This document shows, one piece after another, positions 14,385-64,000 of a stretch of 64,000 nt of DNA. Origin of the DNA: Candidatus Sericytochromatia bacterium (GTDB taxonomy: Bacteria > Cyanobacteriota > Sericytochromatia > UBA7694); the NCBI GenBank assembly GCA_018780035.1, contig JADMKE010000003.1, positions 18,753 through 82,752 of the forward strand. Direction: 5' to 3'. The position numbers and the translations under genes are program-made. Each line of letters opens with the position of its first letter. Position 1 is the stretch's first letter. A model generated the notes under the pieces. That model was given only the letters and a program-made list of their open reading frames with translations. It had not been told where the DNA came from and did not search any database.

Positions 14385-16489
14385 GTTCCGAACAGATCTC
14401 CCCGCCCGATGAAATGGAAGAATTATTGCAGACGATCACGGCTGATTATAAACTCAGCTCAGAGCAACTCAGCACCCCGGGGCGTCAGTTTTACGCCCTG
14501 ATCGCACATTTGGCAGCCGGTGAAATGGGCCAGATAGATTTGGTCAAAGAGAGCGCCTTGCAGCGCAAAGTGGCGATGAAAATGGTGCGTCAGCAAGAAA
14601 AACCGGCCCGCATTCGGCGTTTTTTGTTGGAGGCACAAATCACCGCCCAACTCGACCATCCCCACATTGTGCCCGTTTACAGCCTCGAAAACACCCAAGC
14701 CGGTCTGGCCTATACCATGAAACGGGTCCAGGGACAGACCTTCCGAGAGCTGATCGATGCTTCACAATCGCAGGCCATGCCCGTGATGCCTTTGACCCAG
14801 CGTTTGGAAGTCTTTTTGGCTGTGTGTGATGCCCTGGAATATGCCCACAGCCGGGGCGTGATTCACCGCGAATTGGAGCCCAATAACCTGATGATCGGCC
14901 ATTTTCATGAGGTCTATGTGATGGATTGGGGCTTGGCCCGTGTTTTGCCTGACTCACCTTTAGAAGTGCGCATTCCGCCAGAATTGGCGCAAGATCATGA
15001 GGAAGACAGTCCGCTTGAAGGCAATCTCTGCTATTTTTCGCCCGAACAGGCCAAAGGACAATGGGCCGAACTGGATCAGCGCAGCGATCTCTATGTCCTC
15101 GGCCTGATCCTCTACGAATGGATTTGTCTGCGCCCCGCCCGCACGGGTGATTCTTACCTGGCGCTTTTGCAAATGGCTGAACAGGGCTGGGTCAACCCGC
15201 CCGCTTTGCCAGGCGCACAAAAACTCCCGAGTGAGCTGACTGCGATTTTGCACAAAGCCACGGCTTTGAAACCTGAGCAGCGCTACGCCAGTGCCAGCGC
15301 ATTGGCCGATGACCTGCGCCGCTATCTCAAGGGAGAGAGTGTCTCCGCCCAACGGGACACCCTGTTGCAGAGCACAAGTCGGTTGCTCGTCAGGCACCAG
15401 TTGTTGGCCCTCGGCACGGTCTTGACCTTGGTTCTGCTCTGCTCTCTGCTTGGGCTCTGGAGTCTTTGGAGCCAACAGCGTGAATTGGCGCGTTTGCGTG
15501 CCCGCGAGCAGGCCCTCAATCGCTATTTGGGTGCGGTTTACGCCCAAAGCCGCCTCATGAACCGCCAATTTCTCAAAGCCGAAATGCAACTCGAAGCGCT
15601 GTCTGCGGTGGCGGTCTCCCATCTGACCCAGCAAAATCCGGTCAGGGATCGCTATTATTTGCACAAAAAATTTAACCCCCCCGATCAAGTGGCCTCCCAG
15701 CAATACCACAGTCAGCTCAGTGTCAATTGGCCTCTTTCAGTCAAAACCTGGTCTTTGCCTGAATCTCAAGTGGCAAAAGAATTGGGCAGCTTGTCCAGTT
15801 TGCGCCATTTTCAAAAACGCCTCTTGATCGAGAGCAAAACCCCCGAACGCCTCAGCCCTTTGGAGAAACAAACCCTGATTGCCCAAAGTGGCACCCCTGT
15901 GAGTTATGCCACTTTGGTGCTCAAACAAGGTGCGGGGGCCTGGCTGCCGGGGGGCGATTTTGAGAGCCAAAACTACGATCCGGTGATCCGGCCCTTTTAC
16001 AAATTTGGGGCCTACCAACACGCCCGGCGCTGGGGCAATCCGTATATCGACGTCAGTGGGGCTGGCTTGCTCTTGATTGCTGCCACAGGTCTCTTTGATC
16101 ACCAGAACCAGTTTTTGGGCACCGCCAGCCTGGATGTTAAATTTGACACGATCATTCAGACCATGTTGGCCCTGCCACCGGCGTTGCGCACCTTAAAAGG
16201 GGGCTATTTATTGGACGATCAGGGCCGGATTGCGATTCGCTCGAATCAAAAGGGCCAGCAGTTTTCAGCCACCATTCACCCCGATTTAAAATTGCCCGAC
16301 TACCCCCACCCGGCTGTGGTGAAAGCGATCAAGGCCCAACAATCGGGTCACCAGATTTTGCCCGGCAAACAGCCGCTTTTGGTTGCCTATTACCGCATTC
16401 CCGCTTTGGGTTGGTATTATTTGGTCGAAAGCGATTTGGAAAAGGCCCTGTTAAATGAATTTACTCAGCAAAAAAATGAATTTAATTAA
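14381..16489 (+). CDS. Paralogous receptor Ser/Thr kinase-like protein with Cache-like sensor. Predicted pseudokinase (HRD to HRE, Lys to Glu in the catalytic loop, degenerate Gly loop)
   Basis: Same MSS start and ATGA coupling as its upstream neighbour. VAMK lysine kept, but the catalytic loop reads HRELEPNNLM and the Gly loop is AAGEMGQ. DWG motif. TM helix (LALGTVLTLVLLCSLLGL) and a C-terminal Cache signature (RPFYKFG...W.NPYIDVSGAGLLLIAATGLFD...FLGTASLDVKF). Confidence 0.75.
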   Translation: MSSEQISPPDEMEELLQTITADYKLSSEQLSTPGRQFYALIAHLAAGEMGQIDLVKESALQRKVAMKMVRQQEKPARIRRFLLEAQITAQLDHPHIVPVYSLENTQAGLAYTMKRVQGQTFRELIDASQSQAMPVMPLTQRLEVFLAVCDALEYAHSRGVIHRELEPNNLMIGHFHEVYVMDWGLARVLPDSPLEVRIPPELAQDHEEDSPLEGNLCYFSPEQAKGQWAELDQRSDLYVLGLILYEWICLRPARTGDSYLALLQMAEQGWVNPPALPGAQKLPSELTAILHKATALKPEQRYASASALADDLRRYLKGESVSAQRDTLLQSTSRLLVRHQLLALGTVLTLVLLCSLLGLWSLWSQQRELARLRAREQALNRYLGAVYAQSRLMNRQFLKAEMQLEALSAVAVSHLTQQNPVRDRYYLHKKFNPPDQVASQQYHSQLSVNWPLSVKTWSLPESQVAKELGSLSSLRHFQKRLLIESKTPERLSPLEKQTLIAQSGTPVSYATLVLKQGAGAWLPGGDFESQNYDPVIRPFYKFGAYQHARRWGNPYIDVSGAGLLLIAATGLFDHQNQFLGTASLDVKFDTIIQTMLALPPALRTLKGGYLLDDQGRIAIRSNQKGQQFSATIHPDLKLPDYPHPAVVKAIKAQQSGHQILPGKQPLLVAYYRIPALGWYYLVESDLEKALLNEFTQQKNEFN

Positions 16490-26283: not shown

Positions 26284-28893
26284 GTGAAAGTATTTGCGCG
26301 TAAATTCCGGGTCAATAAGACATCGCTGTTTTCGATGGTTTTGTTGATTTCCACAGTTGGATGTCAGCCAACATCTACTTCTGGACCTAATGTCCCCACC
26401 GCTCCGACTTCGAGCCCTGTCCATTCTGCGGCTCCGGCTGCGACACCCACTCCAGGCGCCTCTGCGACACCCGTTCCGACGAGTTCGGGTCTTTCGGGGC
26501 AGAACGACACGACCCCTCCCACAGTGTCGTTTACCAGTCCTATCAATGCCGAACTGGGTATTGCCGTTAACCGCAAAATTGTCGCCACCTTTAGTGAGGT
26601 CATGGACCCAACTAGTTTGTCTGAATCCACCTTCACGGTAACAGCTCCCGGACCTGTTGCTGTTGCTGGTAAGGTGACGTATATCGGTAGCGTGGCCACC
26701 TTTACACCCACCAGCAACCTGGCTGTTAGCACCAGCTATACAGCGACGATCAGCACCAAAGCCAAGGACTTGGCTGGCAATGCCATCGCACTTAAAAAAA
26801 GCTGGGTTTTTACCACGGATGCTTCGAGTGATACCACAGCCCCAAGTGAAAGTTACTCAAACCCAGCCAATGGCGCAACCAATGTCGCTACCAGTGGCAA
26901 TCTAGGCTTGACCTTCAGTGAAGTGATGGACCCCGCAACGGTCAACACAGACACGTTTATCCTGAGAGAGCAACCCGGTTCAAAGCCCGTTGCTGGCACG
27001 GTGACATATATTGGCAATATTGTCAGCTTCAATCCCAAAGAATCGCTCAAGCCCAATACAAGTTATACGGCAACGATTACAACCGGAGCCAAAGATCTGG
27101 CAGGCAACCCCTTTGCCGCAGATAAAACCTGGACCTTTATCACAGGCTCGTCTGACGGTGCTGGCAGTGGCAGCACTGGCGGTGGCGGTGGCGGTGGCGG
27201 TGGTGGAGGTGGCGGCGGCGGCGGAGGTGGCGGTGGTACTGTCGTCACCCCAGACACCTCCCCTCCAACCCTGAGCGCAAGCAACCCTGTCAATGCAGTC
27301 CTGAATGTCTTCACCAATGGCAAGTTGGCAGTGACTTTCAGCGAGGTGATGGATGCCTCAAGTATAAATTCAACCACTTTTTCTCTGGTCGGCCCCGGTC
27401 AGACCCCTGTCCCAGGGACGGTAACTTATGCGGGCACGACGGCGACCTTTACCCCCAACGCGAATCTCGCCGCCAATACCCAGTTTACGGCCACGATCAC
27501 CAATGGGGTCAAAGACCTGGCAGGCAATGCCCTGGCAGCCAATCAGACTTGGACCTTTACCACCGGGTCCGCCACCGATACAACCGCCCCAACAGTCAAC
27601 CTGAGTACACCAGCCAACGCGGCCATAGGCGTGGCTGTCAACGCAGCTGTTTCAAGCACCTTTAGCGAAGCGATGAATGCCTTGACCATCAGCACCAACA
27701 GCTTTCAGCTGACGGGGCCTGGTGCAACGCCCGTTTCTGGCGCTGTCACCTACGTTGGCAATATTGCGACCTTTACACCCACCAGCAACCTGGCTGCCAA
27801 TACCCTGTATACAGCCACTGTGAACATGGGCGTCTTGGACCTCGCTGGCAATCCGTTGGCGGCTAACAAAGTCTGGACGTTCACCACCGGTGCTGCTCCT
27901 GATACCACGGCGCCTTTGGTGAATGCAAGCAACCCTGCGAACCTGGGCGCCAGTGTCTTGACCACAAGTCTGAACACAGCCACCTTCAATGAGCCGATGA
28001 ATCCGCTCACGCTGACCACCGCCACGTTTACCCTGACTGGGCCTGGTCAGGTACCCGTTCCGGGCACTGTCAGCTATATCGGCAATGTGGCCACCTTTAC
28101 CCCCACAACCGAGCTTGCACGCAAGACCCTCTATACGGCGACCATTACCACGGGCGCTCAGGATCTCGCAGGCAATCCGCTGGTGGCCAACAAGGTCTGG
28201 ACATTTACCACCGCTTTGGGGCCTGCTGCTGTCAACCTCAGAACCGCCGCTGATTTTGCCGTCTTATCCAAATCCGGCATTTCGTCGGTTCCGGGTTCGG
28301 TGATCACCGGGGATATTGGGGTGAGCCCAATCGGGCTGACCGCCATTACCGGTTTCTCAGAGGTGATGGATGCTTCGACCACCTTTGCGACCTCGACTCA
28401 GGTCACTGGTCGGATTTATGCGGCCAATCTGACCGCGCCCACACCCACAAAAATGACGACGGCAATTGGGGATTTGGCCACTGCATACACAGATGCGGCC
28501 GGACGGGCCATTCCTGACTTCTCTGAGTTGGGCACAGGTCAAATCGGGGGGCAGACATTGGTGCCAGGTCTCTACAAATGGGGAACCAATGTTTTGGTCT
28601 CGACCGATGTCACCTTAAACGGGGGCCCCAACGATATCTGGATCTTTCAGATTTCGGGTGGTGTGATCCAGGCTTCTGATAAACGGGTGATCCTGTCCGG
28701 TGGGGCCCAGGCCAAAAATGTCTTCTGGCAGATTGCTGGCGATGTGAGCATCGGTGCTCGCGCCCATTTTGAGGGAATCATCATGTGTGAAACCGAGATC
28801 AATCTGGGTTCAGACGCCTCGATCAACGGCCGCCTTTTGGCCAATACGGCGATTAACCTGATCAAAAACACCGTGACGCAACCGGCTCTCTAA
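26284..28893 (+). CDS. Surface lipoprotein with about 5 tandem Ig-like (SbsA/BIG-type) repeats, a Gly27 linker and a C-terminal DUF3494 ice-binding-protein-like domain
   Basis: Lipobox LLISTVGC. Repeated roughly 95 aa units (TxTYxGNxATFTPxxNLAANTxYTATIxxGAKDLAGNxLAANKxWTFTT). Run of 27 Gly. The C-terminal domain starts AADFAVLSKSGISSVPGSVITGDIGVSPIGLTAITGF and ends with a beta-helix-like G/N-rich region. Confidence 0.8.
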   Translation: MKVFARKFRVNKTSLFSMVLLISTVGCQPTSTSGPNVPTAPTSSPVHSAAPAATPTPGASATPVPTSSGLSGQNDTTPPTVSFTSPINAELGIAVNRKIVATFSEVMDPTSLSESTFTVTAPGPVAVAGKVTYIGSVATFTPTSNLAVSTSYTATISTKAKDLAGNAIALKKSWVFTTDASSDTTAPSESYSNPANGATNVATSGNLGLTFSEVMDPATVNTDTFILREQPGSKPVAGTVTYIGNIVSFNPKESLKPNTSYTATITTGAKDLAGNPFAADKTWTFITGSSDGAGSGSTGGGGGGGGGGGGGGGGGGGGTVVTPDTSPPTLSASNPVNAVLNVFTNGKLAVTFSEVMDASSINSTTFSLVGPGQTPVPGTVTYAGTTATFTPNANLAANTQFTATITNGVKDLAGNALAANQTWTFTTGSATDTTAPTVNLSTPANAAIGVAVNAAVSSTFSEAMNALTISTNSFQLTGPGATPVSGAVTYVGNIATFTPTSNLAANTLYTATVNMGVLDLAGNPLAANKVWTFTTGAAPDTTAPLVNASNPANLGASVLTTSLNTATFNEPMNPLTLTTATFTLTGPGQVPVPGTVSYIGNVATFTPTTELARKTLYTATITTGAQDLAGNPLVANKVWTFTTALGPAAVNLRTAADFAVLSKSGISSVPGSVITGDIGVSPIGLTAITGFSEVMDASTTFATSTQVTGRIYAANLTAPTPTKMTTAIGDLATAYTDAAGRAIPDFSELGTGQIGGQTLVPGLYKWGTNVLVSTDVTLNGGPNDIWIFQISGGVIQASDKRVILSGGAQAKNVFWQIAGDVSIGARAHFEGIIMCETEINLGSDASINGRLLANTAINLIKNTVTQPAL
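27160..27237 (+). repeat. (GGN)n microsatellite encoding the poly-Gly linker
   Basis: ggtgctggcagtggcagcactggc(ggtggc...)n, about 26 consecutive GGN codons. Confidence 0.9.
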
Positions 28894-40007: not shown

Positions 40008-43000
40008 ATGACAGAGAGCCCCAAACACAGTGCGCCGCGTCAGGTGTTTCCTGCGTCGGACCCCATTTTGTTTGAGGGGTCCCATTCGCTGATCTACCTC
40101 TCACACGCAGCTGAAACTGGCAAACCTGTCATTATTAAGGTCTTAAAAAAAGAACAGCCCTCGCTGCAAGAAATTGCCCAATTTAACAACGAATTTGAAT
40201 TTACCCACGATCTCGCGATTGTGGGCATTCGCAGCGCCCGCCAAAAAACCCATTACATGCACCAATCGGCTCTGGTACTGGACTATATCGAAGGCAAAAC
40301 CCTCAAGCAGCATTTGGCAGAAATGCCCATGTCTTTACAAACGGGGCTTCATTTGGCCATCCAATTGGCGCAACTCTTGGGCGAAATTCATCAATTGGGG
40401 ATCATCCACAAAGACCTCAATCCGGCCAATATTCTGATTGAAGCGGGTACACAACAGCCCTGGTTGATTGATTTTGGCCTGTCTTGCAAATGGGACATGA
40501 AAGTCCCCCATCTCAACCCACCCCATACCCTGGAAGGCACGCTGGCTTACCTCTCTCCCGAACAAAGTGGCCGCATGAACCGGTGGGTGGATTACCGCAG
40601 CGATCTCTATTCTTTGGGAATCAGTCTGTATGAGCTTTTCACGGGGCAATTGCCTTTTGTCGCTGAAGACAGTTTGGGCTGGGTACACGCCCATATTGCC
40701 AGGCCTCCCAAGCCCCCCCATGAAGTCAATCCCAAGATGCCTGTCAGCCTTTCTGAGCTCATTTTAAAACTGATCTCTAAAAATGCCGAAGACCGTTACA
40801 AATCGGCCTTTGGCTTAAAAAAAGACCTCGAAAAATTGGCCCAGGGGCAGACCCAATTTGAATTGGCCCAAGACGATCATTCTGCCCGGTTGCAAATTCC
40901 GCAAAAGCTCTATGGCCGTGAACAAGAAATGGCCATTCTTTCAGGGGCTTTTGAGCGCATTTGCCAAGGAAAATGTGAATTGATGTTGATCGCAGGTTAT
41001 TCGGGGGTGGGCAAAACAGCCTTGGTTTACCAATTGCACAAACCCATTACCGAAAAACAAGGCTATTTTATTTCGGGCAAATTTGATCAGTTTCAACGCA
41101 ATATTCCCTATTCTGTGTTTACCCAGGCCTTTAACCAACTCTGTGAATATCTGCTGACCGAAAGTGAAGACAAGCTGGCCGATTGGCGACAGCGCATTCT
41201 CACTGCGGTGGGTCAAAATGGTCAGGTCCTGTTGGACATCATCCCCAAGTTGGTTTGGATCATCGGTGAACAGCCCGAAATTCCCAGTTTGGCACCGCTT
41301 GAAGCCCAAAACCGCTTTAACCTCTATTTTGGCTATTTTATTGATGCGCTTTGCAGCCCAGATCACCCCTTGGTGATCTTTATTGATGACTTACAATGGG
41401 CCGATTTGGCCTCGTTGGAATTGTTAAAATTGCTCTTTTCGGAATCCCATTCCCATCTGCTTTTGGTGGGGGCCTACCGCAATAACGAGGTCTCACCCCG
41501 TCATCCCATGATGTTGACCCTGGCTGAAATTCAAAAATTGGGAAACCCCATCAATCAGGTTCAGCTCGAAAACCTCAGCAAAGCCGATCTGGCCGTTTTA
41601 TTGCAAGAAACGCTTCACCATTCCCCAGAACTGCCTGCCTTATTGGATCTGATCTATGAAAAAACCCTGGGCAATGCCTTTTTTGTCAGCCAGTTTCTGA
41701 CGTCGCTCAACGAATCAGATTGGCTGACCTTTCATTTTCAGACCAGGAAATGGCAATGGGATATTGAGGTGATTAAAAGAAAAGAGATCACAGACAATGT
41801 GATTACTTTTATGTCGAATAAAATTCAAAAACTGCCCCAAAACACCCAAGAAATCTTAAAACTGGCTGCATGTATTGGCAATCAATTTGACTTGGCCCTG
41901 CTGAGTCGTCTGGCAGAAGGGCCTGTCCAAGAAACCGCCAGAGCTGTCCAAGCCTGTTTGGTTGAAGGGCTGATCAGTCCTTTGCAGGATATTTACCAAC
42001 TCCGGGTAAAGGTGATGGAGGACCCTCGCAGCCAGAATACCGCGCCTCAGATGGCCGAGTATTATAAATTTATCCATGACCGGGTTCAACAGGCGGCTTA
42101 TGCCCTGCTGTCTGAGTCCGAGCGCGAAATTCTGCATTTGCGCGTGGGTAAACTGCTTTTGGCAGAGGTGCAAACGCAGACCAGAGACCCCGAAAGCCAT
42201 CTCTTTGACCTGGTTGAACATCTCCATTTGGCTTTAAATTTGGTGCAAACGCCTGCCGAGCGCCTGCAAATTGCCCAACTCAGTTTGCAGGCGGGCAAAC
42301 GGGCCAAATTATCCGCAGCGTATGAATCGGCGTTTAAATACCTTAAAACCGGTCTGAGCTGTTTGCCCGAGCAGGCTTGGGCCAGTGATTATGATTTGAC
42401 CTTTGAGATCTATTTAAATGCCATTGAAACAGCGCTGCTGAGCGGCAATTTTGAGCAAATGACTGCGTGGTCTGATCTCGTTTTGGCCTCCACCGATCGG
42501 CTGCTCGACCGCACCCGCGTTTACGAATTGCAAATCACCTTTCACCATGCCCAATACCGCTTGGAAGAATCGGTCAAAACGGGTTTATTTGTCTTGGGAA
42601 CATTGGGCATTGCCATTCCCGAAGATCCCTGTCCTGCAGATTTGCAAAAGGCCTTGGCGGAAACCCATTCTAAGTTGGCGGGCCGCAGCCCCGCAGATTT
42701 ACAAGCGCTTCCCCTGATGGAAGATGCCGCGATGAAAGCCGCGATCCGGATTATGTACAATATCAACCTCTCGGCTTTTTTCTTTCGCCCTTTGCTCTAT
42801 CCTCTATTGGTTGCCAAAGAAGTGGGCCTGATTGCCCAATTTGGCAATGTGCCAGAATCGGCTTTTGTCTATGCCACCTTTGCGATGATTCTCTCAGGGG
42901 TGTTGGGGGAGATTGATTTGGGCTATCAATTTGGCCAAGTCAGCAAAAATCTGCTGGCCTTGCCCCGCTCAAAACAGGTTGAAACGCGCACCCTTTTGGT

Positions 43001-45986
43001 TTTGGGCAATGGGGTTTTGCACTGGAAAGAATCGATCCACGCTTATTTGGACATTTATCCCGAGGCCTATAAAAAGGGGCTGGAGACCGGCGACCATGAA
43101 TGGGCCGCTCAATCGGCGCAGGCCATTTGTTTTATGGCTTTTTACGCTGGGGTTGAATTGCGTTCGATCTCCCAGAATATGGCCCATTATATGGAGGTGA
43201 TCGCCAAGCTCAAATCAGCCATCACCCTGCAATACCAATCGATTTATTATCAATCGGCTTTAAATCTGTTCACCCCGACAGAGAACCCAGGTTTGCTCAA
43301 AGGCCAGATTTACGACGAAACAGAGATGCTGCCCGTACATGAAGCAGCGAAAGACTATACCGGCATCTGTGTGATGTATTTTAGCAAATTGGTCCTGGCT
43401 TACCTTTTTGAGGACTATCAAGCGGCTTATGCCAATACCCTCAAAGCCGCAGAGACCTTGGATTCGATTGTCTGTGTGGTGCATATTGTCCTTTATCACC
43501 ACTATGATTCTCTCTGTCGCTTGGCCCTCTATCCCAACTGGTCCGAGCAGGAACAGGCTTTACAATGGGCCAAAATAGAAGCCAATCAAGCCAAAATGAA
43601 GCTGTGGTCCGAACATGCCCCCGGCAATCACCGCCAGAAATACCAATTGGTCGAAGCTGAAATGGCCCGCATCTTGGGGCAAACAGAGCGGGCCATGGCC
43701 GCTTACGAACAGGCCATTGCAAGCGCACAAGCGAATAAATACCTCAATGATGAGGCCCAGAGCAATGAGTTGTACGGCAAGTTTTGGCTCAACCGGGGTC
43801 AGCCCAAAATTGCAGGATTATACCTGCAAGAAGCGCTCAGGCTTTACCGCTACTGGGGAGCCACAGAAAAGGCCAAACAGCTCGAAAAAAAATATCCAGC
43901 CTTGCTTCATGGCTATCCTCAGATTCCCTCGGCAGCCCTCACCACCCAGACCACCTCTCAAAACGAATCTCAATTTGAATTGGATTATTTTACGATCTTA
44001 AAATCGACCCGCGCCATTTCACAAGAGATCGATCTCAAGCTGCTCTTAAAACAGCTTTTGGAAATACTGTTAGAAAATACCGGGGCCGAAAAAGGGGGAC
44101 TTTTATTGCCTTTGGGGCAAGCTTGGTTTCTCGAAGCTTACCGCGAGTTTCAAGGCAAGTCAGAGATTCTCCAACACACGCCTTTGGAACAAGCGACCGG
44201 CATCCCCCATGTGATCATTCAATATGTCTTGCGCTCGGGGGAAAATCTGGTGATCGAAGATGCCCAAAATGATGAGCGCTTTCGCCTGGATGAACAAATC
44301 AACGCCAGCGGCATCAAATCCATCCTCTGTCTGCCTGTCTCGCACCAGGGCAAAACGGCCCTGGTGCTGTATCTCGAAAACCGACTCTTGGCAGGGGCCT
44401 TTACCCCCAGTCGCCTGGAATTGTTAAACATCCTGCTCAATCAAGCGGTGATCTCTTTGGAAAATGCCCGTCTCTACCATTCGCTCGAAGAAGAGGTCAA
44501 AGTGCGCACCCGCGAATTGCAAGAGGCCAAAGAAGCGGCGGAATGGGCCAAAGAAGCAGCAGAACAAGCCAATCAGGCCAAGAGTCTCTTCTTTGCCAAT
44601 TTAAACCATGAGATCCGCACGCCTTTAAACGCCATTATTGGCTTTTCCAGATTGGTGAGCAGAGAGCCAGAATTGACCCCCGAGCAGAGCAATAAACTGC
44701 ATATTGTTGTCCGCAGTGGCGAACATTTGCTGGACCTGATCAACGACACTTTGGAAATGTCCAGGATCGAAACGGGCAAATTGCAATTGCAAAATTCGGT
44801 GTTTGAACTCAGTGGGTTTCTGGCTGAAATTGAGTATATTTTACGCTTGAAGGCTGCCGTTAAAGGGCTGGAGCTGAATTTTCAGATAGACAAAGAGGTG
44901 CCCCGCTCGATCGAGGCAGATCAAGGCAAATTGCGACAGGTCTTGATCAATTTTATCAGCAACGCCCTTAAATACACCTTAGAGGGACGGGTCGACTTGC
45001 GGGTCAGTTGCAAAGCCCAAGGGGCTGACAGCAGTTTGGAGGGAGCAGTACTCGATTTTAAGATTGAAGATACCGGCATCGGCATTTCAGAGCGGGATTT
45101 GGCCACTATTTTTCAACCTTTTGTCCAATTGGAAACAGGCTCTCTTTCTCAAGGGGGCGTAGGCCTGGGGCTGGCTATCAGTCAGCGTTTTATTGAATTG
45201 ATGGGGGGGGCCTTGACGGTGGAAAGCCAACAGGGGAAAGGTTCGCGTTTCCAATTTTCTCTGCCTGTTGGGAATGTCCGTACACCAGTGGCCGTGACGG
45301 CACAGCCGGCTGCTCTTGTGATAGGTCTGGCCCCCGGACAGGCCCGTTACAAAATCTGTATTGTTGACAATGATCCTTCTAATCTCAGCCTGATTGCCCA
45401 TTATTTAAAACCACTCGATCTGGAGTTGCATTTGGCGGAAAACGGCCAAGCAGCGCTCGACATTTGGCGACGTTGGCAACCCGATTTGATCTTTATGGAT
45501 ATCCAAATGCCAGGTTTAAATGGCTATCAAGTCACTGAGCAGATCCGGGCCGCTGAGACCGAAAAAAGGACGGTGATTATCGCCGTTACGGCCTCTGCCT
45601 TTGCTGAAGAACGGGCGATTGCCCTGCAAAAAGGCTGCGATGACTTTGTGCTCAAACCCCTGCTGGAAGAAGAAATTTTTGCAACTTTGCAAACACACCT
45701 GAAACTCGAATACCTGTATCAAGCGCTCCCGAGGGGGGAACAGCCGCCCGTATTTCAGATTCAGACACCCGATAAATTGCAGGCAGAGATTATGCAATTG
45801 CCTTTAGAATTGCATTCTCAATTGGCGCTTGCCACAGAATTTGGCTCGATTGAAAAAATCGAGTGGGTGATTCAGAAAATAAAGGCCCGCAGTCCCGTCT
45901 TGGGCAATCATCTCGAAGCTCTTTCCGAGCAATTTGACTATGACGGTATCTTATCTCTGCTTGAGGCCGCTGAAAAAAAACGTTAG
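40008..45986 (+). CDS. Multi-sensor signal-transduction multi-kinase: Ser/Thr kinase, STAND/AAA ATPase, TPR, GAF, histidine kinase, receiver
   Basis: 1992 aa. Ser/Thr kinase ([25 protein letters not shown]). P-loop [13 protein letters not shown]. Long helical repeat region. GAF. HisKA H-box ([16 protein letters not shown]). HATPase ([19 protein letters not shown]). Receiver (KICIVDND...[15 protein letters not shown]). Confidence 0.85.
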
Positions 45987-50197: not shown

Positions 50198-50578
50198 TTG
50201 GCCGAGGAGTTCCATATGATTCATACACCGCCTTATGTCAGTCTGATTCAAAGTGGGAATATTCAACTCTATTCGCTTGACCGTGCAACTGTAAAAAAAA
50301 TGCGTCAAAGCGGTCTCAACCCCGGATGGGTGTGGTTTGGCAATGGGGATTTGGCTTATCCAGAATCCGACGATTTTAGCCACCCGCCCGAATTCATTGC
50401 TACCCTAAAACGACTCGCGGAAGCAGGGATTTGTTTTTCGGAAGATTATAAACAGCAATGTTCACCGGCAGATCTGATGCGGGAACTGCGTGAAGCGGGC
50501 CAACTCAAGATTGAATTTAACAGTATCTCCTGGAAAGGGCCCGGCCAATGTCAATTACACCCCCATCCCCCCGATTGA
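50198..50578 (+). CDS. Hypothetical protein
   Basis: 126 aa ORF. Its start may be the internal MIHTP. It overlaps the next gene by 31 nt. Confidence 0.35.
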   Translation: MAEEFHMIHTPPYVSLIQSGNIQLYSLDRATVKKMRQSGLNPGWVWFGNGDLAYPESDDFSHPPEFIATLKRLAEAGICFSEDYKQQCSPADLMRELREAGQLKIEFNSISWKGPGQCQLHPHPPD

Positions 50579-51378
50579 ACCTGTGTTTGGGGGGGCTCCT
50601 TGGCTCGCTGCTTTTGCTGGCCTGTAGCCCTGCTCCGCCAGTCCCGCTGGATCTGCCAGAGCTCAATCAATCCATTCACCGCTTAACCAATGCGCTGCGG
50701 GTCGAAAAGGGCCTACCGCCATTGGCTGAACTTGAAAGTTTAAATGCGCTTTCAACGCGCCACAGCTTGGATATGGCACGGCAGAATTTTTTCGACCATA
50801 CCAATCCCCAGGGACAAGATCCGATTGCCCGCATGCGTTCCCAGCAAAAGGGCTTGCTTGTCAGCCACTCGGGTGAAAATATCGCCATGCGCAGCACCGC
50901 AGGCGAAAAGGCGACCGAATTTGCCCAGGTTTTACTTGAGCTTTGGAAAAATTCGCCCGAACACTATGCCCATTTGGTCGAACCCAAGTTTCGGCATTTG
51001 GGGGTGGGTGTGGCCCAGGCCGAAGATCGGATCTATGCCACCCAAACCTTTGCCTCCGCTGTGGCTGAATTGGAAGCCCCGCTGCCTGAAACGGTTTCAA
51101 CAGGAGAGACTGTCAACCTCTCCTTCCGCTTTCATGCCGAATTTCCGCCAGCGGAACTCAGTGCCTTTATGAGTGCCCCCGATGGCACTGCCCGGATTCC
51201 CAGCGGCGACGGGCGCTATTATATCGGCAAAGGCCCGATCGGTATTCAATGGAGCGATAGCCTGCATTTTCAGATTCAGATTCCCACCCTTTACGGTTTG
51301 GGCAATTACAGGCTGAGTTTGGGACAAAAATCCCAGTATTATGATCATCCCTTTGTGTTTAAAGCCCTGGCCAAATAA
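50548..51378 (+). CDS. CAP (SCP/PR-1-like) domain lipoprotein
   Basis: Lipobox LLLACSP. CAP domain motifs (LTNALRVEKGLPPL...HSGENIAMRS...HYAHLVEPKFRHLGVGVA). Confidence 0.7.
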   Translation: MSITPPSPRLNLCLGGLLGSLLLLACSPAPPVPLDLPELNQSIHRLTNALRVEKGLPPLAELESLNALSTRHSLDMARQNFFDHTNPQGQDPIARMRSQQKGLLVSHSGENIAMRSTAGEKATEFAQVLLELWKNSPEHYAHLVEPKFRHLGVGVAQAEDRIYATQTFASAVAELEAPLPETVSTGETVNLSFRFHAEFPPAELSAFMSAPDGTARIPSGDGRYYIGKGPIGIQWSDSLHFQIQIPTLYGLGNYRLSLGQKSQYYDHPFVFKALAK

Positions 51379-51528
51379 CCCATCAAGGCATAGGCGGTGC
51401 ACCAGCAGGGCCCCTCTCAAACGGCAAAAGCAAACCTGCTAATTGGTTATAATGGTAAACAGCCCCAATCACTTAGCTCTTTTACGATCAGAGCCAGTTT
51501 ACTATTCAGAGTCAGGAGTTCGCATTCC

Positions 51529-53172
51529 ATGTCTATTGAACCCATATCCGAAGCCGAAACTGAGGATACGCTCGAGCGCTTTCTTGCGACAGAAACCACA
51601 ACCGAAAGTTTAGAGACCCCCACAGAGAGCTACCTTTCTCCTTTTGCAGGCTTGAGCCTGTATGCCGAAGAGGATGAATACCAAGAGGAAGATGAAGATC
51701 TTCCGCCATTTATGCGGGCCCAAGCCCAAAAAGCCGAAACAAAACCAGAGCCTGTTGCCCATTCGGTGCCAGAAACAACCCAGGCCAAGGCGGCTCCAAC
51801 TGCACCAGCCGTTCCGGTTGCGCCCCCCATTCCCCAACGGGCCGCGGCTGAATTGGCCCCTGAAGAGCTGCAAGAGACCTTGATTGTGGGGGGATTCAGT
51901 TTAAATTCAGGCGATAGTCAATACAAACAAGAAGAGAGCATGCTCAATTACCTGATCAAAAATGCCTTGGTTGATCAGGTTTCTGCGATCCACATTGAAC
52001 CGATGGACCGGTATATTCGTGTGCGCTACAGAATTGGCGGTGTTTTACAACAAAAAACGGCCTTGCCCCCCAATTTGGGAATGCCCATGCTTGCACGTTT
52101 AAAACAACTCTGCGCCTTAAATGCAGAAATGGTTACCACACCTCAGCAGAACCGGGTTCATGCCAGTTTTAACGAGCAAGAATTTGAATTGGGTTTGGCC
52201 ACCTATCCCACCGCCTGGGGTGAGAATATGGTCATGAGTTTGCGTCAGAAACAGAAATCCGCCAATGATGTACTCCGACTCGACAGTATTGGGCTCTCAC
52301 CCCTGAATCTTTGGCGCTTGCAAAAATTATTGGGGCAGCCCGGCGGTCTCACCATTGTGACCGGCCCCGCCCGTTCAGGCAAAACAACCACCCTTTACGC
52401 GGCCTTAAATGCCTTAAATTTGCTCAGCCGTTCGATTGTGACAGCCGAAAATCCGCTCGAACACCTGATCATGGGCATTACCCAGGGCAATTGGAGCCCC
52501 GAAAATGGCGAATCTTACCCAGATTTGATCCGCGCCATGTCTCATTTGGATCCCGATGTTTTGATGGTCAGCCAATTGGATTCACCCGAAACTGTTGAAG
52601 CCACTGTGGATCAAGCACTTACTGGTGCCAAGGTGCTCACTTCGTATCACAGCTTTGATACCATGGGGGCCTTGCTGCGTTTGGGGGTGCAGGGGCTGGA
52701 ATCGTATTTGATCGCCTCCAGCAATGTGACCCTGATTTCTCAGCGATTGGTTCGCAAGCTCTGCCCCCATTGCCGCCATGCAGATTCGCCTCCCAAAGAA
52801 TTCCTCGATGTCTTGGGACTCAAAGGCGTTCATCCCAAATCTTTTCAGGTGTATTGGGCCCGTGGCTGCAGTGAATGCAATCAAATGGGCTATTTGGGCC
52901 AGACCACATTGCAAGAGATGTTGGTCTTAAACGAATCCATGCGTGAGGCCATTTTGGAACATCAACCCGCCGCCCGGATTCGCGAGTTGGCGAGACAAGA
53001 AGGCAAATTGGTGACCATGGCTGAAGATGGCTATTTTAAAGCCACCGAAGGGATCACCTCGCTCTCAGAAGTGCAGCGGGTGGCTTTTGTGAACGAATTT
53101 GATGCCAAATCACCCTGGGAAGCTGAAAAAATCCTCAAGGTGTGTAAAGGCGAAGATCAGAGCTATTTGTAA
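51529..53172 (+). CDS. GspE/PilB-family secretion ATPase paralogue with a degenerate catalytic core (predicted non-hydrolysing)
   Basis: Start at MSIEPISEAE. Acidic low-complexity N-terminus. Walker A GPARSGKTTT. The Asp box is ENPLEH (not EDPIE). The Walker B region is DVLMVSQLD (not D..MVGE.RD). His box TSYHSFD. Tetracysteine CPHC...CSEC. Confidence 0.75.
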   Translation: MSIEPISEAETEDTLERFLATETTTESLETPTESYLSPFAGLSLYAEEDEYQEEDEDLPPFMRAQAQKAETKPEPVAHSVPETTQAKAAPTAPAVPVAPPIPQRAAAELAPEELQETLIVGGFSLNSGDSQYKQEESMLNYLIKNALVDQVSAIHIEPMDRYIRVRYRIGGVLQQKTALPPNLGMPMLARLKQLCALNAEMVTTPQQNRVHASFNEQEFELGLATYPTAWGENMVMSLRQKQKSANDVLRLDSIGLSPLNLWRLQKLLGQPGGLTIVTGPARSGKTTTLYAALNALNLLSRSIVTAENPLEHLIMGITQGNWSPENGESYPDLIRAMSHLDPDVLMVSQLDSPETVEATVDQALTGAKVLTSYHSFDTMGALLRLGVQGLESYLIASSNVTLISQRLVRKLCPHCRHADSPPKEFLDVLGLKGVHPKSFQVYWARGCSECNQMGYLGQTTLQEMLVLNESMREAILEHQPAARIRELARQEGKLVTMAEDGYFKATEGITSLSEVQRVAFVNEFDAKSPWEAEKILKVCKGEDQSYL

Positions 53173-57623: not shown

Positions 57624-60299
57624 TTAATCTGTGGTGAGTGTGGTTGGGGCCCCGGCCACCACCAAGGTGCAGGCCGCAGGCATAAGATGTTTTTGGGCCG
57701 CAGCTTGAATCGACTCAGGGGTGAGTGATTCCAAGCGCTGCCAATGGTCTTCTAAATGTTTCTCGGGCCAGGCGTAGATTTCACGCTGCAGCAAAAAACC
57801 GACACGCTGGTCGTTGGTTTCAAAGCGGAAAGGCAATCGCCCGCTGAGATAGGCACGGGACCGGTCCAATTCCAATTGGCTAATTCCGTCATTTAAGAGC
57901 TTTTCGACTTCTTCGCGCATGGCTTTGAGGCCGGGGGCCACCCCTTCTGGACGGGTTTCCATCCAGGCCATAAAGACGCCGGGGTAAAGACCGGCGCTGC
58001 CCGTAATTGACGCTCCTGCACTGTAAGCCAGGCCCTCTTGCTCGCGCAAACGAGCTGGCAAGCGTGAGGTAAAACCAGGGCCTGCTCCCAAGACCAAGTC
58101 GAGAATCTGCAAGGCGGCAAAATCGCTGTGGCGACGATCCACCCCCAAATGGCCCCAATAGACTTGGCATTGTTCTTTGCCTGGCAAATGAATTTGCTGA
58201 TACGAAGGGGTCTTTTGGCGCTGGGGCAGGGGATAGAGGGGGGCGATGCCTTTGGCCGGAGAAAAATCGTGCCAAATTTCGGCGAGTTGGGCCAGGGTCT
58301 CTTTGGCAGAAACTGCGCCCGACAGGGCCAAAATTGCCCCCTGAGAGCCGTACCAGGTCTGGTAAAACTGGCGCACATCTTTTGCCTGCAGCGGTTTGAC
58401 ACTGCTGATCATACCACTTTCGGGTCTTGAGGCCGGAAAATCGCCATAGATTGACTTGTAAAAGGCCCGACTGGCCAAATACGAGGCCTGTTCTTCAGCG
58501 GCTTCGAGGTCGGTCAAGATCAGGCGTTTTTCACGCAAGATTTCGACTTCGTCCAAAGCCGGTGAGCCCAAAATTTCGCGCATCAAATGCAAAGCTGTGT
58601 CTTGATGTTTGGCCAAAATTTCGAAACTCAAAAAACTGCCACTCAGGCCAGTTGCCACACTCAAGCTGCCGCCCAATGATTCCAAATAGCGTGAGAGGGC
58701 CACACCGGGTTTGGCTTGGGTGCCTTTGATCAGGACCGAGGCGGTCAGATTGGCCAGTCCCTGCTGTTTGATGGGGTCGTGCAGGCTTCCGGCGGGCCAA
58801 AAGACCTCCATAGACAGGGTGGGAATGCGTATGTTTTCGTGCACCAAAAGCGTCATACCATTGGGCAAAGACAGCCTTTCGGCATGTAAGCTCGGAAACC
58901 AGAGATGGGGGGCGGGCAGGGGTCTTTCGGTAAAATTCATGCTGCGATGGGCCTGGGGCCGGGAGTGGGTACGATCGGCCAGGGGCGCTGCCGAGGATTC
59001 CCCTGCTTGATCGGGGTCAGAATGTTCGGGCAAGAGCCAACCCACAGTGCGGCGCTCTGCTGCCAACCAGCTTGAGGCCACGCGGGTGATATCTTCCACT
59101 TTAACAGCCTGAATCTGGGGCACAAAATCATGAATCAATTGCCAACGGGCCAAACTTGCCAACTCACCCAGCACCTCGGCCTGATCTTCAGCGGTTTCTT
59201 GACTGAGATAAAAGTCGGTCAACATCTGGTTTTGGGCCTTGGTTAAATGGGAAAAATCCCACTCTCCGTTTTGGACTTGGGCCAAGGCCTTAAAAAGTGC
59301 GGCTTCGGTCTGGGCCAAGGGAATGCCTGTATGGCCATCCACTGCAATCCAAAACAGATAGGGCTGTTCGGTTTCAAAACAAGCGGCGTCGATATCCGTG
59401 GCGACTTGCTCCTCTTCCACCAAGGTTTGATAAAGCAGTGAGCTGAGGCCTTCGGCCAGGATGTACTGCAACAAACTCAGGGCATAATAATCGGGATGGG
59501 TCAAGGCTGGCGCGGGCCAAGCGACGACCAAACGCGGCAGGGTCACATCGGCCTGGGTCAAACTGACCCGGCGTTCAGCATTTTGCAGCGGTTCCGCTTG
59601 GTATTGGCGCGGCGGCAATTTACCTGCGGGCAGGGCCTCAAAATAGTGTTTGACCCGTTCAAGCGCCAACTCGGGTTGAATATCGCCGACGATCACCAGG
59701 GTCGCATTGTTGGGGTGGTACCAGTTTTGGTAATAGCTCCGCAATTCTTCGGGGCTGAGGTTTTGAATATCTTTGACCCAGCCCAACACCGGATTGCGGT
59801 AGGCGTGTGTGGTTAAGGCGGCCTGGGTCACGGCCTCCCAGAGGTTTTCTTCGGGATCGTCTTTGGACGTGCGCCACTCTTCGAGAATCACCTGGCGCTC
59901 AGCTTCGATCTCGATCGGATCAAGCAGGCAATTTAACATGCGGTCGGCTTCAATTTCGAGTGCAATTTCCCAGCGGTCCGAGGCAAAATTAAAATAATAT
60001 GCGGTATTGTCAATCCAGGTATAGGCGTTGTTTTCGCCCCCACCTGAAAGGGTCAGTCGGTCGATTTCGCCCCGTGGAAAAAGCCGGGTGCCTTTAAACA
60101 GCATATGCTCCAAAAAATGAGAGACCCCGGTGGGCGAGCCCGCTTCATTGCCTGAACCCGTGTGATACCAAATCATGACCGTGACGACAGGCAGGGCTGA
60201 GTCGGCTTTGAGTAAAACACGCAAACCGTTGTCCAGGTGGCTTTCTTGGACATCGGCAAAAAGGTCAGTAGGAGAAGGGGATTCAGGCATTAGACTCAT
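57624..60299 (-). CDS. M16 family zinc metallopeptidase (pitrilysin/insulinase-like, two tandem M16 units)
   Basis: Inverted zinc motif HFLEHMLFKGT. Roughly 890 aa spanning two halves. Start taken at MSLMPESP; the ORF-track GTG start at 60347 is an alternative. Confidence 0.75.
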   Translation of the reverse strand: MSLMPESPSPTDLFADVQESHLDNGLRVLLKADSALPVVTVMIWYHTGSGNEAGSPTGVSHFLEHMLFKGTRLFPRGEIDRLTLSGGGENNAYTWIDNTAYYFNFASDRWEIALEIEADRMLNCLLDPIEIEAERQVILEEWRTSKDDPEENLWEAVTQAALTTHAYRNPVLGWVKDIQNLSPEELRSYYQNWYHPNNATLVIVGDIQPELALERVKHYFEALPAGKLPPRQYQAEPLQNAERRVSLTQADVTLPRLVVAWPAPALTHPDYYALSLLQYILAEGLSSLLYQTLVEEEQVATDIDAACFETEQPYLFWIAVDGHTGIPLAQTEAALFKALAQVQNGEWDFSHLTKAQNQMLTDFYLSQETAEDQAEVLGELASLARWQLIHDFVPQIQAVKVEDITRVASSWLAAERRTVGWLLPEHSDPDQAGESSAAPLADRTHSRPQAHRSMNFTERPLPAPHLWFPSLHAERLSLPNGMTLLVHENIRIPTLSMEVFWPAGSLHDPIKQQGLANLTASVLIKGTQAKPGVALSRYLESLGGSLSVATGLSGSFLSFEILAKHQDTALHLMREILGSPALDEVEILREKRLILTDLEAAEEQASYLASRAFYKSIYGDFPASRPESGMISSVKPLQAKDVRQFYQTWYGSQGAILALSGAVSAKETLAQLAEIWHDFSPAKGIAPLYPLPQRQKTPSYQQIHLPGKEQCQVYWGHLGVDRRHSDFAALQILDLVLGAGPGFTSRLPARLREQEGLAYSAGASITGSAGLYPGVFMAWMETRPEGVAPGLKAMREEVEKLLNDGISQLELDRSRAYLSGRLPFRFETNDQRVGFLLQREIYAWPEKHLEDHWQRLESLTPESIQAAAQKHLMPAACTLVVAGAPTTLTTD

Positions 60300-60414
60300 G
60301 ATTGCAACAGTATACCGCAATTGGAGGGGGCGGGCCTGTGATCGCACTTTTGCGCATTTTTGGATTTAGCGGGTACAATGAAGTAATTTCACAGAATCAA
60401 GAGGGTGCCTTTTT

Positions 60415-62402
60415 ATGAGTCAAACGCAGCCATCCAGACAAGGACAGGCCGGTTTCCGCATTGGTGAACTGCTGGTACGCGAAGGCTATCTCACCATGGA
60501 TGCCCTGAACAAAGTCCTGGCGATTCAAAAGCAGCAAAAAGAGGCCCTGAGCGGTGAATACAAGCCCTTCGGACAGATTTGTCTGGAGCTGAAACTGATC
60601 ACCCGTGAAGAGTTACAGCGCTTTCTGAAAAAATACAATAAACGCATTTACCTGGGTGAATTGCTCGTGAATATGGGACTGATCACGATCAAACACGTGG
60701 ACCTGATTCTCAACCAACAAAAACAAAGTGGCAAACGCTTTGGTGAGCTTTTGGTGGAACAGAAAATCATCACCGAATCCCAATTGACCGACGCCCTTTC
60801 GACCCAATTGGATGTGCCCAAAATTATCCCTTCGCTGCAATTGATGGATCGCTCTCTGATGGACGGTATGTCTGAGCAATTTGTGCGCTCCAATCAGTTT
60901 TTGCCAGTCTACAAAGAGGGTGACCAACTCACGGTTGTGATGGCCGACCCTGCCAATCAGGATCTGGTCAAAGAACTGGAACACCAATTGCAATTGCGGA
61001 TTGCCCCCGCCATTGCCCCTGCCTCTGAAATTTCCCGCACGATCAACGAGTATTATCACAGTTCGACCTCGATCGACAAAAAAATGGATCCGAATTTGGA
61101 GCAGGTCAAACTCGAAGGCATTCAGCCCGAAGCAGAAGACAAAGTCAGTTCTCAAGACAATTCAGCGGCCATTGCCAATTTCTTGATCTCCAATGCCATG
61201 AAAGACCGGGCCTCGGATATTCACGTCGAACCCCAAGAAAAATATATCCGCATCCGCTACCGCATCGACGGCGTTTTGCACCACAAAACCGACCTGCCCA
61301 GCAATTTGGGCCCGGCCCTGGTCACCCGCCTGAAAAAGGTCTGCCGCCTCAATCCCGACGATGTCAAAGCCTATCAAGATGGGCGTGTGGTCGGAGATAT
61401 TGCTGGCAGCAAGATCGAAATCCGGGTCTCGACCTATCCCAGCATCTGGGGCGAAAACGTCGTGATTCAACTGCAGGACAAAGAGAGCACCTTCCAAGAT
61501 CTGCTCTTAAATATGGACCGCACAGGCTTTTCGCCGCTGTATATCCAGCGCTACCAAAAGATCCTCAACCAACCCGGTGGAATTGTGATTGTGACCGGCC
61601 CTGCCAATACCGGCAAAACCACCACACTCTACGCTTCAATCAATTATCTCAATCAGCAAAACCGCTCGATTATCACGGCCGAAGACCCAATTGAACGTCC
61701 CGTGCCAGGCACCGTTCAAGGGGCTTATAACCCCGAATCGGGCATCAGCTACGCAGAGATGATTCTGGCCATGTTGAAACAGGATCCAGATATTCTCGTG
61801 GTGGGTGAAGTCAAAGACAAAGCCACCATGGGTGCGGTGGTTGAAGCGGCACTTTCGGGCTCCAAGGTGCTCACCACCTACCCGGCCTTTGACGCCACCG
61901 GCGCGCTTTTGCGCCTGATGAATCTGGGCCTGGAAGACTATTTGATCGCCTCCAGCAATATCACAGTCATGAACCAGCGTTTGGTACGCCGCCTCTGTGA
62001 TTCTTGTAAAGCCACTTACACCCCCAAGAAAGAAACCTTTAATCTCTTGGGACTGGTCGATGTCGATCCCTCTTCTTATGAGTTTTACCGGCCAGTGGGT
62101 TGCCCCGAGTGCAGCCAACACGGCTTTAAAGGCCAGACCGCGATTCATGAATTGCTGCAGATCAACGAAGCGATTCGTGAGGCCCTGATCGAGCGCAAGC
62201 CCGCCGCCACCATTCGCGGGATTGCCCGAACCGAAGCCAAATTGGTGAGCATGGCCGAAGACGGGCTCTATAAAGCAATCGAAGGCATGACCTCGGTCGA
62301 AGAAGTCCAGCGCGTGGCCTTTGTCAATGAATACGACTCTCAAACCCCTTGGGAAGCTGAAGAGATCTACCAGATCTGTTCTGGCCTGGAACCCGAATAC
62401 CT

Positions 62403-62406
<4 letters not shown>
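60415..62406 (+). CDS. GspE/PilB-family ATPase with N-terminal tandem MshEN-type (c-di-GMP-binding) motifs
   Basis: N-terminal RIGELLVREGYLTMDALNKVLAIQ, YLGELLVNMGLITIKHVDLILNQQ and RFGELLVEQKIITESQLTDALSTQ match the MshEN consensus RLGxxLVxxGLIxxxxLxxxLxxQ. Walker A GPANTGKTTT, EDPIER, Walker B DILVVGEVKD. The His-box position reads TTYPAFD, so the His is absent. Tetracysteine CDSC...CPEC. Confidence 0.8.

Positions 62407-64000
<1,594 letters not shown>

Follow-up and report, generated by a model that had tools for sequence, protein, structure and literature searches.

A PilB/GspE-fold ATPase with two MshEN_N modules and no His-box histidines in Candidatus Sericytochromatia: a possible c-di-GMP- and ATP-gated switch

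The gene, its fold and its N-terminal modules

The window analyzed here is a 64-kb stretch (64,000 nucleotides) of contig JADMKE010000003.1 from a Candidatus Sericytochromatia bacterium, and its subject is the open reading frame (ORF) at 60415..62406 on the + strand, which starts with ATG, encodes 663 residues and is a real gene for an ATPase of the PilB/GspE fold. The Sericytochromatia/Blackallbacteria are the non-photosynthetic sister class of Cyanobacteria. The gene follows a divergent M16 peptidase gene after a gap of 67 bp that holds a plausible Shine-Dalgarno sequence (AGAGGG), and a scan for promoters and terminators around it gave nothing over background. The features of the protein and of the gene that follows it are listed below; His-box equivalences use the numbering of Geobacter metallireducens PilB.

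60457..60636, + strand: first MshEN_N module (residues 15-74), motif 1 and motif 2 with a 12-residue spacer
60649..60807, + strand: second MshEN_N module (residues 79-131), motif 3 and motif 4 with the canonical 5-residue spacer
60841..61068, + strand: MshEN_C, or GSPII alpha-beta, subdomain (residues 143-218; PF05157)
61162..61479, + strand: N2 domain (residues 250-355) with both arginine fingers, R324 (QDGR) and R337 (EIRVST)
61597..61620, + strand: Walker A GPANTGKT (residues 395-402), Lys401 kept, fourth residue Asn
61678..61695, + strand: Asp box AEDPIE (residues 422-427), Mg-coordinating Glu423 invariant
61789..61818, + strand: atypical Walker B DILVVGEVKD (residues 459-468), catalytic Glu465 present
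61849..61893, + strand: His-box position ALSGSKVLTTYPAFD (residues 479-493), H413 replaced by S483 and H420 by P490
61996..62112, + strand: tetracysteine Zn motif C528, C531, C563 and C566, a marker of the PilB/GspE clade
62311..62403, + strand: subfamily-specific C-terminal tail (residues 633-663), beyond the end of the T2SSE match
62403..63509, + strand: DUF4424-like protein of 368 residues, GTGA overlap with the ATPase stop

Pfam, NCBIfam, alignments to Protein Data Bank (PDB) chains, an AlphaFold2 model and a fold search concur that the core has the PilB/GspE fold. T2SSE (PF00437) spans residues 255-633 with 309.7 bits against a Pfam cut-off of 24.9, and MshEN (PF05157) spans residues 143-218 with 64.9 bits against 23.1, covering profile positions 12-88 of 90. 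The best NCBIfam matches are the PilB equivalog TIGR02538 (445.3 bits, cut-off 675.65) and then the GspE equivalog TIGR02533 (417.7 bits, cut-off 630.25), neither cut-off being reached. The AlphaFold2 model, built on an alignment of 76 sequences, is confident, with a predicted local distance difference test (pLDDT) of 88 and a predicted template-modeling (TM) score of 0.82. Its core superposes on G. metallireducens PilB and Thermus thermophilus PilF with target-normalized TM scores of 0.88-0.90 and root mean square deviations of 2.7-3.1 Å, and it contains the two domains (N2D and the C-terminal domain) of the PilB-type fold in the PilT-like/T2SSE superfamily. The N-terminus is modeled as eight helices forming four hairpins, two in the first MshEN_N module (16-22/28-43 and 52-58/64-74) and two in the second (80-86/92-105 and 109-115/121-132). 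A disordered, low-confidence linker (219-245) lies between MshEN_C and the N2 and C-terminal ATPase domains, and the tail forms two short helices with a pLDDT of about 90.

A first-pass annotation of the window had read tandem MshEN motifs at the N-terminus, counting three, possibly four, segments. Tandem motifs are indeed found, and four segments are present, arranged as two modules, the second segment being a variant. Motif 1 (residues 15-38, RIGELLVREGYLTMDALNKVLAIQ) fits the published consensus RLGxx(L/V/I)(L/V/I)xxG(L/V/I)(L/V/I)xxxxLxxxLxxQ without deviation and is the only one to satisfy the full relaxed pattern of that work (PMC5013675). Motif 2 (residues 51-74, PFGQICLELKLITREELQRFLKKY) shows the fixed variant P-F-G...C...K...Y, motif 3 (residues 79-102, YLGELLVNMGLITIKHVDLILNQQ) starts with Tyr (Y79), and motif 4 (residues 108-131, RFGELLVEQKIITESQLTDALSTQ) has Lys at the turn Gly; the spacers between these 24-residue motifs are 12, 4 and 5 residues long. 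The 53-residue model NF053729, which describes the motif for cyclic di-GMP (c-di-GMP), scores 83.5 bits on the whole protein in two stretches, against a cut-off of 38. Residues 1-78 alone give 42.1 bits (match at 15-73) and residues 79-140 alone give 61.5 bits (match at 80-131, model positions 2-53 of 53). Because each half alone exceeds this curated cut-off, each is taken as a genuine MshEN_N module; the four-motif pattern goes far beyond a chance match.

Across about 118 homologues the four motifs are kept, together with the Gly at motif position 3. Among the contact residues of the present protein, Gly-3 is found in 4/4 motifs and Gln-24 in motifs 1, 3 and 4, with the hydrophobic positions retained; the deviations are K60 and K117 at the turn Gly (position 10), the Tyr that starts motif 3 and the Tyr that ends motif 2. 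For comparison, the variants G11L and G40I of Vibrio cholerae MshE, both at motif position 3, showed little or no binding of c-di-GMP (PMC5013675). The Tyr that opens motif 3 would not be disqualifying, since PilF's GSPII-B domain binds c-di-GMP at 6 nM with no arginine contact (PMC11731258). The two MshEN_N modules are predicted to provide one c-di-GMP site each, followed by a single MshEN_C.

A comparison with characterized proteins places this architecture. V. cholerae MshE, the extension ATPase of the mannose-sensitive hemagglutinin (MSHA) pilus and the prototype MshEN c-di-GMP receptor (PMC5013675), has in common with the present protein MshEN_N, MshEN_C, N2, the Zn-containing PilB/GspE core, and a pair of 24-residue motifs with a 5-residue spacer (residues 79-131 here). 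However, the Sericytochromatia protein has an extra MshEN_N module upstream, lacks both His-box histidines, departs from the P-loop consensus, and carries a conserved tail of about 30 residues past the T2SSE match. Also, MshE serves the MSHA pilus, whereas no pilus genes were found in the 64-kb window and c-di-GMP binding by the present protein is a prediction.

The best match by sequence among solved structures is T. thermophilus PilF (PDB 6f8l; PMC11731258), with an E-value of 5e-101, and motifs 2-4 align to its three-motif GSPII-C domain. Each of the two could bind c-di-GMP at more than one site. However, PilF has three complete GSPII domains where the Sericytochromatia ATPase has two N-subdomains and one C-subdomain (143-218), and it has a canonical His box and has been shown to act in pilus biogenesis, twitching motility, adhesion and DNA uptake. 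Assignment to the triple-GSPII type of Thermus PilF was ruled out by the single MshEN_C. Tandem (MshEN_N)2 arrangements were noted when the domain was defined, as were genomes that encode numerous MshEN proteins (up to 22, in Myxococcus xanthus; PMC5013675). Tandem MshEN_N and multi-motif GSPII are thus an already described architecture and not a new one (PMC5013675, PMC11731258).

The nucleotide site and its erosion among the closest relatives

The His box, one of four signature motifs of the ATPases of secretion, pili and archaella, is reported as needed for function. In G. metallireducens PilB, H420 contacts the gamma-phosphate and, with H413, sandwiches T411 (PMC5424180); a role of H420 in coupling neighboring subunits has been proposed, and both histidines are required for function (PMC6762196). 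In the Sericytochromatia protein, a MAFFT alignment of 121 sequences and the HMMER alignments to solved chains of PilF and PilB concordantly place ALSGSKVLTTYPAFD against the canonical ALTGHKVLSTFHTDD, so that T411 corresponds to S481, H413 to S483 and H420 to P490. The histidine pair that characterizes the PilT-like/T2SSE superfamily is absent. The reading TTYPAFD, with Pro for His, had already been made in the first-pass annotation; the loss covers both histidines and not the second alone. Moreover, it is shared by a whole clade, where the first His is kept in 0/57 proteins and the second in 1/57 (the sole keeper is the paralogue in the window described below), against 61/62 and 62/62 in the canonical relatives. 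The replacement motif Y-P-A-F-D-A-T-G-A is itself nearly invariant in the clade.

The P-loop is altered too. The segments GPANTGKTTT, EDPIER and DILVVGEVKD, which had been taken as a canonical ATPase core, are all present, but Walker A departs from the family consensus: GxxxxGKT is kept and GPTGSGKT is not, with N398 in place of the Gly found in 62/62 canonical relatives. Near the nucleotide site, the substitutions that distinguish the clade include T397A and G398N/R in the P-loop, V422A in the Asp box, and F489Y, H490P and T491A in the His box. On the other hand, K401, E423, G464-E465, R324, R337, the pore-loop Asp468 and the four Zn cysteines are retained, the cysteines being invariant in both alignments A1 and A2. 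R324 and R337 correspond to R271 and R286 of G. metallireducens PilB (PDB 5tsg/5tsh; PMC5424180), with which the protein also has in common the core fold, the equivalents of E357 and E395, and the tetracysteine; it differs in the Ser and Pro that replace H413 and H420 and in the Ser that replaces T411. Walker A, the Asp-box Glu, the catalytic Glu of Walker B and two Arg fingers, by which PilT-like ATPases are recognized, are present, and these elements (Walker A/B, catalytic Glu, two Arg fingers, Asp-box Glu) are described as completely conserved in that superfamily (McCallum et al.). Judged by its residues, the core keeps the set for Mg-ATP binding and, in principle, for hydrolysis.

The relatives fall into three tiers. 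The closest homologues all come from Candidatus Sericytochromatia/Blackallbacteria and form clade A, the orthologues (63-100% identity), and clade B, a second Sericytochromatia group (49-68% identity) that includes the window paralogue. The third tier (42-47% identity) consists of canonical-motif proteins in 62/64 cases, its named members belonging to Desulfobacterales, Desulfatiglandaceae, Binatia, Deltaproteobacteria and Proteobacteria, and two degenerate Sericytochromatia proteins, P0066 and P0108, lie within its identity range. The four-motif N-terminus is common to all tiers, as is a homologous C-terminal tail that reads RVAFVNEYDSQTPWEAEEIY.IC.G in Sericytochromatia and RVVF.NESD...AEEI..C.G in the others, and many of whose residues are invariant in the 35-sequence alignment A1. 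Because these two elements run through all tiers, the ATPase is assigned, on the basis of sequence, to a distinct subfamily of double-MshEN_N, tail-bearing PilB-like ATPases.

The true nearest relatives are the orphan double-MshEN_N ATPases of the third tier (P0057-P0120; Desulfobacterota, Binatia and others), which have in common with the Sericytochromatia protein the four-motif N-terminus, the homologous tail and, in the three contexts examined, the orphan setting. In contrast to it, they carry the canonical GPTGSGKT, EDPVE, GEIRD and TGHKVLSTFHTDD, and many have a further C-terminal extension that brings their total length to about 760-890 residues. This extension, found for example in P0061 (about 650-876), holds a conserved EGE.YRIRFD..TIE.E; it is absent from the protein studied here and gave no Pfam match in the three members checked.

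A neighbor-joining (NJ) tree was computed from p-distances over 375 core columns with 100 bootstraps. In the sampled tree, the His-less proteins are monophyletic (100/100), and together with the third degenerate lineage (P0066, P0108) they form one clade (100/100). This wider Sericytochromatia clade is nested among canonical members, a provisional placement given that the tree is a distance tree with an arbitrarily chosen root. Among the 150 nearest representatives of 50%-identity clusters, drawn from 1.8 billion proteins, both histidines are kept in 136; six representatives lack both, four of which carry the tail and a fifth of which is named Sericytochromatia. Also, a scan of 185,579 species genomes with two tail-specific peptide patterns returned 23 loci, 21 of them from about ten Sericytochromatia metagenome-assembled genomes (MAGs). 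One clade-A copy occurs in nearly every Sericytochromatia MAG hit, accompanied in most of them by one or two of clade B.

The gene is under strong purifying selection: the ratio of nonsynonymous to synonymous substitution rates (dN/dS) against close orthologues is 0.010, 0.017 and 0.036, and many assemblies hold the 663-residue frame intact. The ATPase is 99.5% identical to a copy on contig JBPXJQ010000049.1, where its neighbors are 94-96% identical.

Across the His-less clade, the residues of the nucleotide site are kept to very different extents, as given here for clade A, for clade B with the window paralogue, and for the canonical outgroup.

Walker A Lys: 25/25 in clade A, 32/32 in clade B with the paralogue, 62/62 in the outgroup
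Asp-box Mg-binding Glu: 25/25, 32/32 and 62/62
Catalytic Glu: 23/25, 21/32 and 58/62
Arg finger 1: 5 Arg and 19 Lys of 25 in clade A, then 28/32 and 62/62
Arg finger 2: 20/25, 1/32 and 58/62
Asp-box Asp: 15/25, 2/32 and 60/62

The full set, histidines aside, is retained only by the ATPase of the window and its four closest relatives. Invariant nucleotide-binding residues with dispensable hydrolysis residues make a pattern typical of a fold that works as a nucleotide-dependent switch.

The erosion is well illustrated within the window. A degenerate paralogue had been noticed about 7 kb upstream, and it is confirmed at 51397-53172 (+), its end lying 7.2 kb before the start of the ATPase gene. 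This protein is a member of the His-less clade that has no MshEN domain and shares the C-terminal tail. Its Walker B reads VSQLDS (catalytic Glu replaced by Gln), its second Arg finger is lost, its Asp box is AENPLE, and it keeps the second His (SYHSFD). By comparison with the orthologues at two other loci (L013 and L014), its true start is probably Met45 (51529), and its N-terminus is an acidic, Pro-rich segment of about 135 residues. The annotated frame starts 19 bp after a CAP/YkwD gene (50548-51378). The two paralogues of the window do not lie in the same operon, and their linkage is not conserved between loci.

At least four MshEN-T2SSE genes are found in assembly GCA_002781665.1. On its 416-kb contig PFFQ01000012.1, which also bears a 91% orthologue of the ATPase, two further genes of this type lie 10 kb apart (10001-11947 and 21625-end of locus L006). 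The first encodes P0108, with a degenerate Walker B (MVQDIPD) and Asp box (LEKPIV), and precedes an MFS/PGA_cap gene and an MMPL transporter gene.

Genomic setting

The absence of recognizable pilus or type II secretion system (T2SS) genes nearby, remarked on in the first-pass annotation, holds for the window and for about 10 kb around relatives at 35 loci. The window has no gene for T2SSF/PilC, a prepilin peptidase, a secretin or PilMNO, and none of its ORFs of at least 40 residues has a prepilin-type N-terminus. Also, tblastn searches with Legionella PilC and PilD (from L035) against the window and the 35 loci gave no match, and the Pfam gene tables of loci L001-L012 and L036-L038 list no pilus or T2SS families. 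The orthologues, the paralogues and the three canonical outgroup members examined are surrounded by unrelated genes; at one of the outgroup loci, the flanking genes are a REC-GGDEF gene and one of HD-GYP type. A search for GGDEF and HD-GYP proteins in the window and about 694 kb of fetched loci, a small sample, gave only receiver-domain matches outside the query's own locus (L010).

A blastp comparison of the window neighbors with the ORFs of all loci found none shared beyond the closest relatives. The sole recurrence is a double-M16 peptidase beside the outgroup member P0060 at locus L011, at 27% identity, which is probably coincidental. This peptidase of about 900 residues is encoded at 57624-60347 (-) in the window, divergent from the ATPase gene, and at 12167-14824 (+) at L011, where it is co-directional; it is absent from the other loci. 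The double-MshEN_N subfamily is orphan in every context examined, and even its members with intact catalytic motifs appear uncharacterized. Searches of the literature turned up no account of pili or motility in Sericytochromatia or Blackallbacteria, and nothing useful on GspE-type "pseudo-ATPases". A limited search likewise found no description of a clade-wide, selected loss of the histidine pair with P-loop remodeling and graded catalytic loss in an orphan PilB subfamily.

The gene directly downstream had been described as ATGA-coupled and as encoding a secreted protein. The overlap is in fact GTGA (ctGTGAgt, with a GTG start), and the N-terminus of the 368-residue product does resemble a Sec signal peptide, ending ...LFWVSLCWA|GD, as judged by eye. 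This gene in turn overlaps aroB (3-dehydroquinate synthase, start 63506) by ATGA, forming a chain at 62403-64000 (+). Because the chain runs on into a housekeeping gene, the overlaps reflect compact gene packing. The family of the 368-residue protein has 15 members in a database of 5.8 billion proteins, the four with a named organism all being Sericytochromatia or Blackallbacteria, and an identical protein (100%) is found in a Sericytochromatia MAG with locus tags IV090_. The gene adjoins the ATPase only in the closest relatives (L001, L013-15 and L038), and the adjacency is absent in orthologues at 64-77% identity; moreover, a homologue with 46% identity sits after a tRNA-synthetase gene with no ATPase nearby. 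The 368-residue protein is probably not a functional partner of the ATPase. Functional coupling of the ATPase to this protein or to the CAP protein was rejected, given that the linkage is not conserved and that the overlap chain ends in aroB.

A switch or a motor

The reading we prefer, to which we give about an even chance, is that the protein works as a hexameric switch under the control of c-di-GMP and ATP, one that hydrolyzes ATP weakly or without coupling and signals to a partner. According to this proposal, it would be a cytoplasmic, probably hexameric NTPase of the PilB/GspE fold, acting as a switch rather than as a fast motor of filament assembly. ATP binding would be retained and turnover would be slow or uncoupled; the nucleotide state and the c-di-GMP occupancy would set the conformation, which could be relayed through the invariant C-terminal tail, the N-terminal modules or both to a partner presumably encoded elsewhere in the genome. 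The first-pass annotation had called the protein a motor. The loss of the His box, the remodeling of the P-loop and the eroded sister paralogues would fit a switch or regulator better.

Several points weigh against this proposal. Because the protein and its four closest relatives keep the complete catalytic set, it could be a competent ATPase that senses the gamma-phosphate in another way, for example through N398 or Y489. Also, one clade-A copy in nearly every MAG hit fits the assembly ATPase of a machine encoded elsewhere as well. Finally, c-di-GMP binding is a prediction from motifs of which the second and fourth have Lys at the turn Gly and the third begins with Tyr.

An alternative is that the gene encodes an ordinary PilB/MshE-type motor, displaced from the pilus or T2SS-like machine that it would serve and stimulated by c-di-GMP in the manner of V. 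cholerae MshE, in which the change of the His box is tolerated or compensated. This explanation, which we regard as possible but rather unlikely, draws on the retention of the Walker A Lys, the Asp-box Glu, the catalytic Glu, the Arg fingers, the tetracysteine and Asp468, on the PilB equivalog as top NCBIfam match (445 bits), on a core fold like that of PilB (target-normalized TM 0.9), and on a strongly selected orthologue in nearly every Sericytochromatia MAG hit. However, both histidines are gone and the P-loop is remodeled, the scores stay under the PilB and GspE cut-offs, no PilC, PilD or prepilin gene was found in the 64-kb window or within about 10 kb at the 35 loci, and sister paralogues have lost catalytic residues; moreover, the three canonical outgroup contexts are orphan too, which is unusual for dedicated motors. 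A different arrangement, improbable in our view, would be mixed hexamers of the ATPase with its paralogues (51397-53172 and the clade-B copies), in which degenerate sites alternate so that only some interfaces hydrolyze ATP and others sense. At least two clade members occur in most MAGs hit, the GCA_002781665.1 assembly has more, the members have the invariant tail and the conserved core in common, and the defects are complementary: the ATPase has the catalytic Glu and the Arg fingers and no His, whereas the paralogue keeps the second His and has neither the catalytic Glu nor Arg finger 2. Nonetheless, the paralogues do not share an operon, and linkage between them is unconserved. In addition, we know of no description of a mixed PilB-type hexamer, which also counts against this arrangement.

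The proposal of the first-pass annotation, that a c-di-GMP-controlled motor is dedicated to the secretion of the 62403-63509 protein and the CAP lipoprotein, fares considerably worse and seems very improbable. The 4-bp overlap with a gene for a signal-peptide-like protein and the CAP/YkwD gene directly upstream of the paralogue would speak for it. However, the adjacency is confined to the closest relatives, the 46% homologue stands without an ATPase, the chain of overlaps into aroB points to compact packing, and the 368-residue protein has a Sec-like N-terminus of its own; also, no gene for a membrane platform, pseudopilin or secretin was found in the window, nor PilC at the 35 loci. As for a decaying gene for a pseudo-ATPase, which the missing catalytic motif and the degenerate paralogues might suggest, its probability is close to nil: the dN/dS values of 0.01-0.04 and the intact frames rule it out, the replacement motif at the His box is conserved, and the structure model is confident.

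The switch proposal can be extended to the whole group, in a form that we consider doubtful. In this extension, the Sericytochromatia would have turned a PilB-type ATPase into filament-independent second-messenger switches, through one ancestral loss of the histidine pair followed by radiation into paralogues that bind ATP and c-di-GMP with little or no hydrolysis, possibly in mixed rings, and whose tail signals to a partner outside pili and secretion.

In any case, a His-less form kept under purifying selection across a class, beside paralogues at successive stages of catalytic loss, offers a natural experiment on the His box, and it suggests that proteins of the PilB fold may serve as sensors of nucleotide and c-di-GMP rather than as motors. 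Moreover, the public names within the 90% cluster of the protein ("TadA", "GspE/PulE family protein" and "PilB") overstate what is known of it, and taking the cluster members as a sign that relatives of Cyanobacteria have pili or type II secretion could mislead reconstructions of metabolism and motility.

Other genes of the window deserve mention in their own right. The gene at 26284-28893 (+) encodes a protein of 869 residues with five Big_5 Ig-like repeats and a C-terminal ice-binding-like domain (PF11999, 240 bits). A signaling protein of 1992 residues is encoded at 40008-45986 (+) and combines a Ser/Thr kinase, AAA_16 (STAND-like), a weak TPR-like match, GAF, HisKA, HATPase_c and a receiver domain. 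Two tandem, overlapping Ser/Thr kinase genes at 12174-16489 (+) encode products with C-terminal dCache/PDC sensor domains. Finally, the segment 490-8392 (-) holds genes for the large and small subunits of a [NiFe]-hydrogenase, a HycI-type maturation protease, NAD-binding/Fe-S and 4Fe-4S subunits and a cNMP-binding protein, with the transhydrogenase genes PntA and PntB interleaved with the hydrogenase cluster.

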